Of a DNA stretch of 64,000 bases, positions 7,357 through 10,161 are shown one piece after another. Location of the stretch: NCBI RefSeq assembly GCF_964194025.1, contig NC_134475.1:44888001-44952000 (forward strand), written 5' to 3'. The stretch's first letter is position 1; every line of letters begins with the position of its first letter. Made by a program: the position numbers and the translations under genes. This stretch comes from Convolutriloba macropyga (lineage: Eukaryota). Under the pieces are notes generated by a model. It saw nothing but the letters and a program-made list of their open reading frames with translations, did not search any database and was not told where the DNA came from.

Positions 7357-7479
7357 GTAAGTCAAGCTTTTTTCCCATATTCAAAAATTATAGTTAATAC
7401 GACAAATGAATGCATTGATTGTATACTTTTCTCTATATCCATTAGAATTTTTTTTTTAAAAAAACGCATTTCAATCTAG
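7357..7479 (+). other. Spliceosomal intron 1 of polB (123 nt, phase 2)
   Basis: CG|GTAAGT ... TTTCAATCTAG|G; removal joins FEEMNNVCANVFR to ..RLIPFRVSKK..LDLLLL..HYVLIRNL; the intron is AT-rich and has in-frame stops. Confidence 0.8.
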
Positions 7480-10003
7480 GTGCTCCGACTAACGACTGAT
7501 CCCCTTCCGTGTCTCAAAAAAAGCCGACGTTGAATTTAATCTTGATTTACTTCTGCTAAGCGATGAATCGATTCATCATTACGTTCTTATCAGAAATTTG
7601 AATAGTTCATAAAGTGCGGAAAAGAGTTCCCCGAACTGATAATCATCTGTGCAGGAATTGTTTCCATATCTACGGTTCAAAAGCAAGATACGAAAGTCAT
7701 GTGTCTTGTTGTCGACAGAAAAAGCAAGCTCTTGTAAGAATGCCCGATAAAAAACAAAAACTCCCTTACATTTAGAAAATTTCAAGCTCGCTGGTTTGCG
7801 CACTTGGTCGGCTTTTTTCATCTCGAGTCAATCATTGAACCAGTCATGAGTCGTAGAAACTATCCACGGCTTTCTGAAACGCGGAAAATAGAAATGCATA
7901 AACCGTGCAGCTATGCCTTACTGTTTATAACACAAGGTCAAGATGAACCATTTCACTTTGCATTTGAAAGGGGTCCTGGAGTAATGCAGCAATTTGTGGA
8001 GTCGCTGCAGCAAAAGAAGAGGCCAAGACAATATATGTCAAGAAACAACAAAACTGATACTTCGACAAAGTACAAAGAATCGCAAGATCTAACGTTGAAA
8101 ATTGTTGGGTTTGCGGATCTCCATTAGGTCAATTGTACGAAAACCCGACAGTGCTTGACCATTGTAACTTCACGGGTGACTTCTTGGCTGTGCCCACAAT
8201 GAATGTAACATCAACCGAAAACTTTTAAACTATACCCCGTTTTTTGCGCAAAAATCATTCTAACTATGAACTCCACCACGTAATACTTGTACTTCAAGGA
8301 AGCAATTTGCGAAACCGAGTTACAATAGTCACAACCACAGATGAGAAAGATATAGCACTTGAAATTGGAGTTTTCGTCAAAATGCGGTTAGACAAAAACA
8401 ATAAGGAACTACCTCTTTTCGCTTCATGCCATCGTTCCTCGACTCATTGGCTAAAAACCTGTCATCAGAGGAGTGCAAGTTGTTGGAGCAGCACTTCATT
8501 AGATGGCCAGAAATTGCTGTCGACAATTTGAAGCAGAAACGCTTCTTCCTATCTGGTTACATTGACAACTTCGACAAGCTGGCAGAGTCTGACCTTCCTC
8601 CGCGTTCTATGTGGACTAACAGTTTACGTCAGTTTGAAGTCGCTGTATCAGAGGAGCGAAACGAGCAAGCAGTAGATGTATTCGAAATTTTCCAATGTAG
8701 TTCAATTGGCAAATACTACCATTTTTATCTGTAAACAGACGTTTTTCTGTTTGCAGCCGTAGTACTCTGTTTCCGAAAAATTTGTTACGAAGCATATGGT
8801 TTGGATTGCTGTCATTTACACTGCATCTAATCTATCAGGTGACGCAATATTGAAAATTTGCAAAGCCCGGATAGAGTTGCTTATCCAGCGCGATCACCTA
8901 GACATGGTAGAAAAGTTGGTCCGCGGAGGGATTAGTTCCGTTTACAGTAAAAGATTTTCAATGGCCAACATAAAATATCTCGAAAATTTTGATGCACAGA
9001 AGCCGTCAACCTTCTAAATGCCGGAGTGATGGAAAATTTCTACTTGTCACTTAATGATTTTGATTTTTTTCGATCAATTATGGAATTCAGAAATTGAACA
9101 AAAACTAATCAACAAAAGAGCCTGAAAATGGCAGTGATTTGGCCTCATTGTAGAAGTAGACCTTGACTATCCCGATGGTCTTCACCAACTACACTCTGAC
9201 TTCCCTTTCGCACCAACAACGGACAAAATTGATCCATATTGGCTACCAAGAGGAACTACTTGTGCAGCTGAACGCCCCTCCTTCGAAAATAAAAATCATT
9301 TTCACCAAAACTAAATAAACTCTGCATTATCAGACACTCAAGTTTTATGTTGAGCTTGGGCTGAAAGTAACCAGTTCATCGAGCACTTGAAATTAAGCAG
9401 TCCAAATGGGTGGCCTCATACGTTCAGCTGAAATTTTGAAAGCGCAAGGAAGCTAAGAACAAATTCGAAGAGAATTTCTATAATTATATGGTAAACAGCG
9501 CTTTCAAAAAAACATATGAAGGTAAACGTAACCGGATTAAGGTCAAGCTGGTACATGATGAACATGAAGCATTGAAATCGACTAGCAGACCTTAGGTGAA
9601 AACTTTTCAAATCATTGCCAATCATTTGGCTACAGTAAGTCTCAACAAGACCAAAATATTATATGATAAACCTACAACCGTTGGAGCATGTATCCTCGAC
9701 CTCTCGAAAAAATTCGTGTTTGAGTTTCACTACAAAACCATGAAACACAAGTTTGAATGCAAAATCCTTTATTCTGTCACGGATTAATTTGTTTACGAGG
9801 GGCAAAAAGAGGATTTTTTGTGCACATAGAATCAAAACAAATGAAGGAGACGTTTGACTTGTCCAACTTTCCAAAGAACCATCAGCAATACGATGAAACC
9901 AACGCAAAAGTGACGCTCAAGTTCAAGAATGAGATGGCTGGTTGAACAGTGTCTGAATTTGTAGGTCTCAAGCCAAAACACTACTCGATCAAACTTTCGG
10001 AAG

Positions 10004-10161
10004 GTAAACATTTCTTTTTTTATTCGCTAGCTTTTTGCTTCGCAGGCGTCAAGAAAAATCAGTGAGACGACGTGATTGATGATGCACTTTTTGTCTGCTT
10101 TTTCTTTAGTAGCTACAATTGAAATCAGTTTTCTAAAATTGATCGGAAATTTTTTTCACAG
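10004..10161 (+). other. Spliceosomal intron 2 of polB (158 nt, phase 1)
   Basis: GAAG|GTAAAC ... TTTTTTCACAG|GT; removal restores the frame GLKPKHYSIKLSEG-DGKQPAKGV. Confidence 0.85.

Follow-up and report, generated by a model that had tools for sequence, protein, structure and literature searches.

Whether a Polinton DNA polymerase (pPolB) gene may carry spliceosomal introns, and whether these belong to a lineage or only to one copy, is the question raised by a locus of Convolutriloba macropyga (contig NC_134475.1, positions 44,888,001 to 44,952,000, forward strand); we refer to the whole 64,000-nucleotide stretch of DNA that was analysed as the window. The first-pass annotation had placed two GT-AG introns in such a gene, and this was borne out, with the junction bases (7356/7480 and 10003/10162) correctly called. 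The features of the window discussed here are as follows.

1..6500, + strand: the element's morphogenesis genes 5' of pPolB (end of the minor capsid gene, major capsid, protease), decayed and present twice
6503..7356, + strand: pPolB exon 1, with C2H2 zinc fingers, a terminal-protein-like domain and the first half of an OTU-like domain (domains taken from the model of a family C homologue)
7357..7479, + strand: intron 1 as read from the DNA, 123 nt with GT..AG ends, in phase 2, flanked by the Cys and His boxes of the OTU-like domain
7480..10003, + strand: pPolB exon 2, with the remaining OTU-like domain, the exonuclease and the palm up to the KxY motif
10004..10161, + strand: intron 2 as read from the DNA, 158 nt with GT..AG ends, in phase 1, flanked by the KxY and KGV motifs
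10162..10985 (end approximate), + strand: pPolB exon 3, with the KGV and YDDKR motifs and an acidic tail
11400..20800 (boundaries approximate), no strand: ~83-bp tandem arrays 3' of the polymerase gene, also seen within the right arm of those family copies that have both ends
20858..22776, + strand: second copy of the pPolB 3' end, 98% identical, whose intron 2 (21377-21534) ends in AA, not AG

The element and the state of the window copy

The window exons are 80–87% identical to those of the sister copy L065, and comparison with a sister copy revealed 18 indels (14 of them frameshifting) and eight stops in exon 2, three stops and one deletion in exon 1, and two frameshifts within the opening 310 nt of exon 3; judged by these lesions, the window pPolB copy is dead, a pseudogene in an element fossil. 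The left end is the sole terminus of this element that was located, with AGTAGT 3.6 kb before the window start, and its integrase region also lies upstream of the window. The window further contains an ~3.4-kb tandem duplication (1-6608), in which the capsid, the protease and the start of pPolB occur twice (85–88% alike), long ~83-bp tandem arrays of two types (11400-40000), which also occur at varying lengths in the right arm of complete copies of the family, and a run of 200 N (61877-62076).

Six younger copies of the window family (family A), which share 96–97% identity with one another across about 13 kb, were fetched for analysis of the element. Inverted AGTAGT termini were present in five of the six; the 6-bp target duplication was exact in two, a near-match in two, and one copy was rearranged. 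One family A copy measured 16.9 kb between its termini and had an exact 6-bp duplication, and two of two family B copies likewise had AGTAGT termini with an exact 6-bp duplication. The sister element encodes an A32-like ATPase, an rve integrase, minor- and major-capsid-like frames, an adenain protease and pPolB, all on one strand. Pfam matches were obtained for the middle exon of L065 (DNA_pol_B_2, 59.3 bits, cut-off 25.8) and, in the sister copy, for the integrase (rve, 42.3 bits, cut-off 32.6) and the protease (Peptidase_C5, 29.9 bits, cut-off 21.3), while Pox_A32, at 20.3 bits, was slightly under its cut-off of 22.8. The major-capsid-like frame had no Pfam or PDB sequence match; it scored 0.98 in the Atlas to a cluster with 30% PF21738 DJR-like members, recognition being slightly under threshold. 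A first viral-contig scan gave no match, and the nearest named homologues are RefSeq models from the acoel C. macropyga that match families B and D of this genome. On its sequence, the element is best classed as a Maverick/Polinton, and the original assignment to Polintons agrees with the pPolB, integrase, protease, AGTAGT inverted termini and target duplications of the sister copies. It resembles animal Mavericks/Polintons in these features and in its A32-like ATPase and capsid-like genes; set against described animal Mavericks, all genes here lie on one strand and ~83-bp tandem arrays fill the right arm. When families are compared, the genes for the ATPase, integrase, capsid proteins and protease each form one colinear frame of ordinary length, and pPolB is the only interrupted gene.

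Two further observations concern element structure. Family C has extra frames with no family A counterpart, two 5' of the ATPase and two between the protease and the polymerase (in L231: 313-1315 and 7529-8227 (reverse), 9394-10080), and one family A copy (L073-L075) has rearranged, nested termini together with a second type of inverted repeat.

Two non-coding intervals in the polymerase gene

Interval 1 reads TCG/GTAAGT ... TCTAG/G, has an A+T content of 76% and contains a stop as its first read-through codon; interval 2 reads AAG/GTAAAC ... TTTTTTTCACAG/G and is 66% A+T. Both are T-rich at their 3' ends, so that each combines a GT donor with a YAG acceptor and a pyrimidine tract, as expected of U2-type introns (donor GT or GC). 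Interval 1 is bracketed by the two boxes of an OTU-like domain, Cys (DEKCF, 7133) and His (IHHYVL, 7571). Interval 2 lies, as the first-pass annotation had it, between the PK.Y and KGV motifs, here KPKHYS (9970, frame 1) and AKGVT (10179, frame 3); removal of intron 2 had been held to restore the frame, but the window copy has many other lesions and thus no intact frame.

A search with a 900-aa stretch of the sister copy's middle exon found 241 homologues, of which the best 120 are listed. Where homologues spanning either site cross it, zero residues are inserted in the protein alignment (e.g., P0023 at residues 327/326 and 1189/1190, P0069 at 1313/1312), and since this is so at both sites the two intervals are not chance features. 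That homologous proteins might align through the intervals had been named as grounds for rejecting the introns; no homologue residues fall inside either one, and removal of the non-coding intervals gives colinear homology. The two GT..AG intervals are thereby confirmed in the DNA, and from them we infer splicing itself.

The placement of intron 1 within a vOTU-like domain, also proposed at first pass, is supported by the Cys and His boxes and by an AlphaFold2 model covering the N-terminal 505 residues of a polymerase from family C, which is without intron 1 (mean pLDDT 75.5, pTM 0.44). Zinc fingers were matched in the N-terminal part of the model, residues 115-238 matched a Y-family little finger (Z 7.9, rmsd 2.7, 98 aligned), and residues about 247-379 matched OTU proteases (Z 7.7, rmsd 3.1, 97 aligned), with many further OTU matches; Z values of 7.7–7.9 are middling. 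Site 1 corresponds to residue 340 of the model, between Cys269 and His373, and intron 1 is thus predicted to split the OTU-like domain just after the terminal-protein-like domain. Little-finger and OTU folds have been described for the Polinton terminal-protein and vOTU domains (bioRxiv 10.1101/2024.03.18.585575).

Searches of the genome with the DNA of the junction regions gave 41 and 40 matches (40 of 93 and 40 of 63 candidates being scored), and splice ends were counted at 30 family A loci per site, the window's own copies included. The GT donor was kept in 28/30 loci at both sites, and the AG acceptor in 24/30 at site 1 and 28/30 at site 2. Interval lengths drift, from 102 to 146 nt at site 1 and from 144 to 166 nt at site 2, with all three frames represented. 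Interval 2 is a multiple of 3 in 18 of the 30 loci, mostly at 165 nt, and in L065, the family A copy read in detail, it contains an in-frame stop. The intervals are 68% identical to those of the window, versus 80–86% in the flanks. The check proposed at the outset, intron presence across family members, thus gave a family-wide presence with ends mostly kept.

The same positions in other families and in database proteins

In five polymerase families of the genome and in seven outside contigs, inserts occupy the same codon in the same phase and have unrelated interiors. Among 20 loci of other families, site 2 was interrupted in all 20 and site 1 in 13; the remaining seven, from family C, lack intron 1 precisely and read straight through. 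Intron 2 of family C has a GCAAGT donor and a CAG acceptor in 30/30 loci each, is 146–156 nt long and leaves no gap in the flanking exons (L220:4400-4570, L243-L272). Among 100 outside loci, six that are 44–52% identical to the query (L101, L102, L104, L105, L106 and L108) carry GT..AG inserts of 56–101 nt, and the 66-nt insert of L103 is without an AG end; L101 has intron 2 and not intron 1. The more distant outside loci that cover the sites in one alignment are without introns. Intron states of L102, L105, L106, L216, L217 and L229 were read from DNA, and the site-2 insert of L230 is 140 nt. At site 1 the split codon encodes Arg or Gly, and at site 2 it encodes Gly or Asp, matching the residues in read-through proteins. 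Of 150 exon-2 and 150 exon-3 matches, 39 plus-strand pairs matched by hand (116–346 nt apart) included no copy lacking intron 2.

Intron interiors were alignable only within families: of 190 pairs, five between-family pairs had z values of 3.7–5.2 with low scores, which we read as composition. In seven comparisons between families, identity at codon position 2 (0.63–0.89) exceeded that at position 3 (0.31–0.46) in all three exons, all of which are thus under purifying selection. From these distributions both introns are much older than the window family and patchily absent.

Several inserts were set aside. A 99-nt insert at site 1 of L083 is an acidic in-frame loop and not an intron, and inserts of 30–60 nt in L094, L095, L109-111, L118, L147-154 and L169 were taken as coding loops from their ends alone. 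We also observed that the site-2 insert of L102 (3575-3660) is in frame and stop-free, and P0020 likewise reads through a short insert; an unspliced message of this type would add ~20 residues to the polymerase, and such copies might be translated unspliced.

These results bear on a rival reading, in which the copy is dead and each interval is a private insertion, an introner transposon or a self-splicing element. Interval 2 has AGGT at both ends, resembling a 4-nt duplication, and introners are known inside dinoflagellate Polinton-like elements (PMC12166617). Yet private insertion, the other outcome that the first-pass annotation had said would count against it, is refuted by the presence of the intervals at the same positions family-wide, in other families and in outside contigs. 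Introners were rejected as no similar sequence occurs at unrelated genome positions: by-eye comparison with the junction-search loci placed all matches of intron-only queries (29/29 and 27/27) in family copies and none outside copies of the element, in a search that skips common words, so that distant copies might escape. An Rfam search of window 7200-10400 with E up to 1 found no group I or II match (a sub-threshold snoRNA match, E 0.69, lies elsewhere in the pPolB gene); with introns of relatives as short as 56 nt this argues against self-splicing, and lengths of 56–176 nt with stops exclude inteins. We consider this reading highly improbable, although an ancient introner origin of the pPolB introns is still conceivable.

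Among database proteins, 35 of the top 66 homologues reach site 2; 21 of these stop or diverge there, typically with one extra codon compatible with a phase-1 donor in those that end, and 14 run through, one of them a RefSeq model. Site 1 is reached by 37 of the top 66: 27 read through (26 by script, one by eye), three are ambiguous, and seven begin at the site with a short unrelated N-terminus. The expectation that ORF-based surveys would fragment such a lineage is matched by these proteins. We infer that the site-truncated entries come from an ORF-only caller; if some proteins are splice-aware, some of the 'absent' intron states would be wrong. P0030 is the protein of L101, and in this single check of its kind the DNA agrees with the intron state inferred from the protein end. 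Two RefSeq models, P0048 and P0191, cross both sites at the same junctions; they are predictions for uncharacterised proteins. Whole subclades (P0015, P0023, P0026 and P0029) appear to be without both introns, and for this reason neither would be essential. Separately, six of 11 members of the P0006 cluster are on contigs of 17–18.4 kb, as long as a complete element, and have near-identical 844–845-aa frames, of which those checked end at site 2; this cluster is possibly a currently active lineage elsewhere.

In a 67-row tree of the middle exon (LG+G4), in which most intron states were inferred from the ends of ORF-called proteins, all intron bearers are confined to a single branch of 53 rows (SH-aLRT 89), where rows without introns are interspersed among them; in a 14-row tree the bearers' branch has an SH-aLRT of 100. 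The 67-row tree requires at least eight state changes for intron 1 and at least six for intron 2, and the rows with states seen in DNA require two among 21 and one among 22, respectively; these counts are blind to gain versus loss. A single clade of intron-1 bearers was rejected (AU p about 6e-71, 14 DNA-seen rows), so a single gain needs several exact losses, and the patchy presence in general needs repeated loss or parallel gain.

Spliceosomal introns could alternatively have been gained in parallel at proto-splice sites, or been spread by recombination that shuffles polymerase modules. The patchy distribution, the unalignable interiors between families and the AG/GT context at site 2 in several families are all consistent with parallel gain. 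The capsid, integrase and ATPase are 79–94% identical among families A, B and D versus 61–71% for pPolB (L064-L065 vs L233, L235), which suggests exchange of the polymerase module between these families and would suit shuffling. Against parallel gain, codon and phase are the same everywhere, all bearers lie in the one branch, and no intron at another pPolB position was noticed in the families compared. We judge these alternatives unlikely and, given that position and phase are invariant and that introns were noticed nowhere else in the gene, prefer one gain and several precise losses for each intron, with parallel gain or module exchange as further possibilities.

Probable host splicing, known systems and significance

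Our preferred reading, to which we give a probability of roughly 0.8, is that these are old non-coding interruptions of pPolB, which is transcribed in the nucleus and from whose RNA the host spliceosome takes out both introns, as deduced from the DNA. Production of the element's polymerase would then depend on transcription in the host nucleus and on host splicing. Each intron would have been gained once near the base of the clade and both would be spliced constitutively, being retained because loss of a splice end destroys the polymerase; precise loss on several branches could have come through a reverse-transcribed copy or through recombination with intron-less relatives. A modest expression benefit of introns for the element's longest gene is possible. 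The P element and adenovirus E2B provide precedents in which an enzyme of transposition or replication is made via host splicing, which has been shown and is partly regulated; the likeness is that of a mobile-element enzyme made through host splicing, deduced here from DNA alone.

As in the P element, splicing could also be a regulated switch that controls replication by tissue or stage. Retention of intron 1 would place a stop inside the OTU-like protease and yield a free zinc-finger and terminal-protein product, and retention of intron 2 would yield a polymerase without its C-terminal part. Such a switch would fit pPolB being the only interrupted gene, intron 1 lying directly after the terminal-protein-like domain in the model, the GC donor kept in 30/30 family C loci, and the split between terminal protein and polymerase in adenoviruses and some polintons (bioRxiv 10.1101/2024.03.18.585575). 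It fits less well with the immediate stop, which follows automatically from GTAA or GTGA in phase 2 and comes later in L102 and L108, with a large family lacking intron 1 and other lineages lacking both introns, and with the lack of a conserved interior motif between families. We hold the switch to be doubtful, and it is just as doubtful that a whole clade of animal Polintons controls its replicase by splicing, with free terminal protein or inactive polymerase arising via retention; if true, it would provide a route to the terminal-protein/polymerase split seen in adenoviruses, and the family C GC donor would be a weak one. In human cells, introns are also reported to shield long transcripts from silencing by HUSH (PMC8770142). 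As pPolB is not more A-rich than the element's other genes, there is no compositional support for a role in evading silencing.

This branch differs from described animal Mavericks in that its pPolB has one or two conserved introns. Intact vertebrate Mavericks are stated to be without introns (PMC8097293), and the core genes of nematode Mavericks are stated to be intronless, with introns only in cargo genes (bioRxiv 10.1101/2022.07.12.499685); intronless core genes are a described trait and not a strict definition, and this element departs from it. Its polymerase is like the Polinton TP-vOTU-EXO-PALM type (bioRxiv 10.1101/2024.03.18.585575) in having a little-finger-like and then an OTU-like domain with Cys and His kept, and unlike that description in its N-terminal C2H2 zinc fingers and its division into three exons; an OTU domain in Polinton pPolB also appears in PMC8502044. 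The main text of the former source contains neither 'intron' nor 'splic', and the latter has one unrelated 'intron'. Spliceosomal-type introns do occur inside Polinton-like elements of dinoflagellates, as eupolintoviral introners (PMC12166617), although these are young, repeated and mobile, and the pPolB introns are old and conserved in position with no copies outside the element. The introns of cryptophyte Polinton-like viruses (PMC12220804) likewise interrupt a Polinton-like element, but are self-splicing group I introns of 309–376 bp, located in a small gene that precedes the capsid gene, with no Rfam group I match here. No report of spliceosomal introns in an animal Polinton pPolB was found in the literature covered, a scope outside which lie subscription papers, Repbase and supplements that may mention such exons. 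Conserved pPolB introns in animal Mavericks therefore appear to be new, the Maverick type, the introns of protist Polinton-like elements and the junction-crossing RefSeq models being already known.

In this branch of Mavericks two pPolB intron positions have persisted across roughly 50% protein divergence, and surveys that choose 'intact' elements by their open frames would score such lineages as broken. The introns would imply nuclear, host-spliced expression of the element, and their precise gain and loss make this a compact system in which to study how introns turn over in a DNA element without its own reverse transcriptase.
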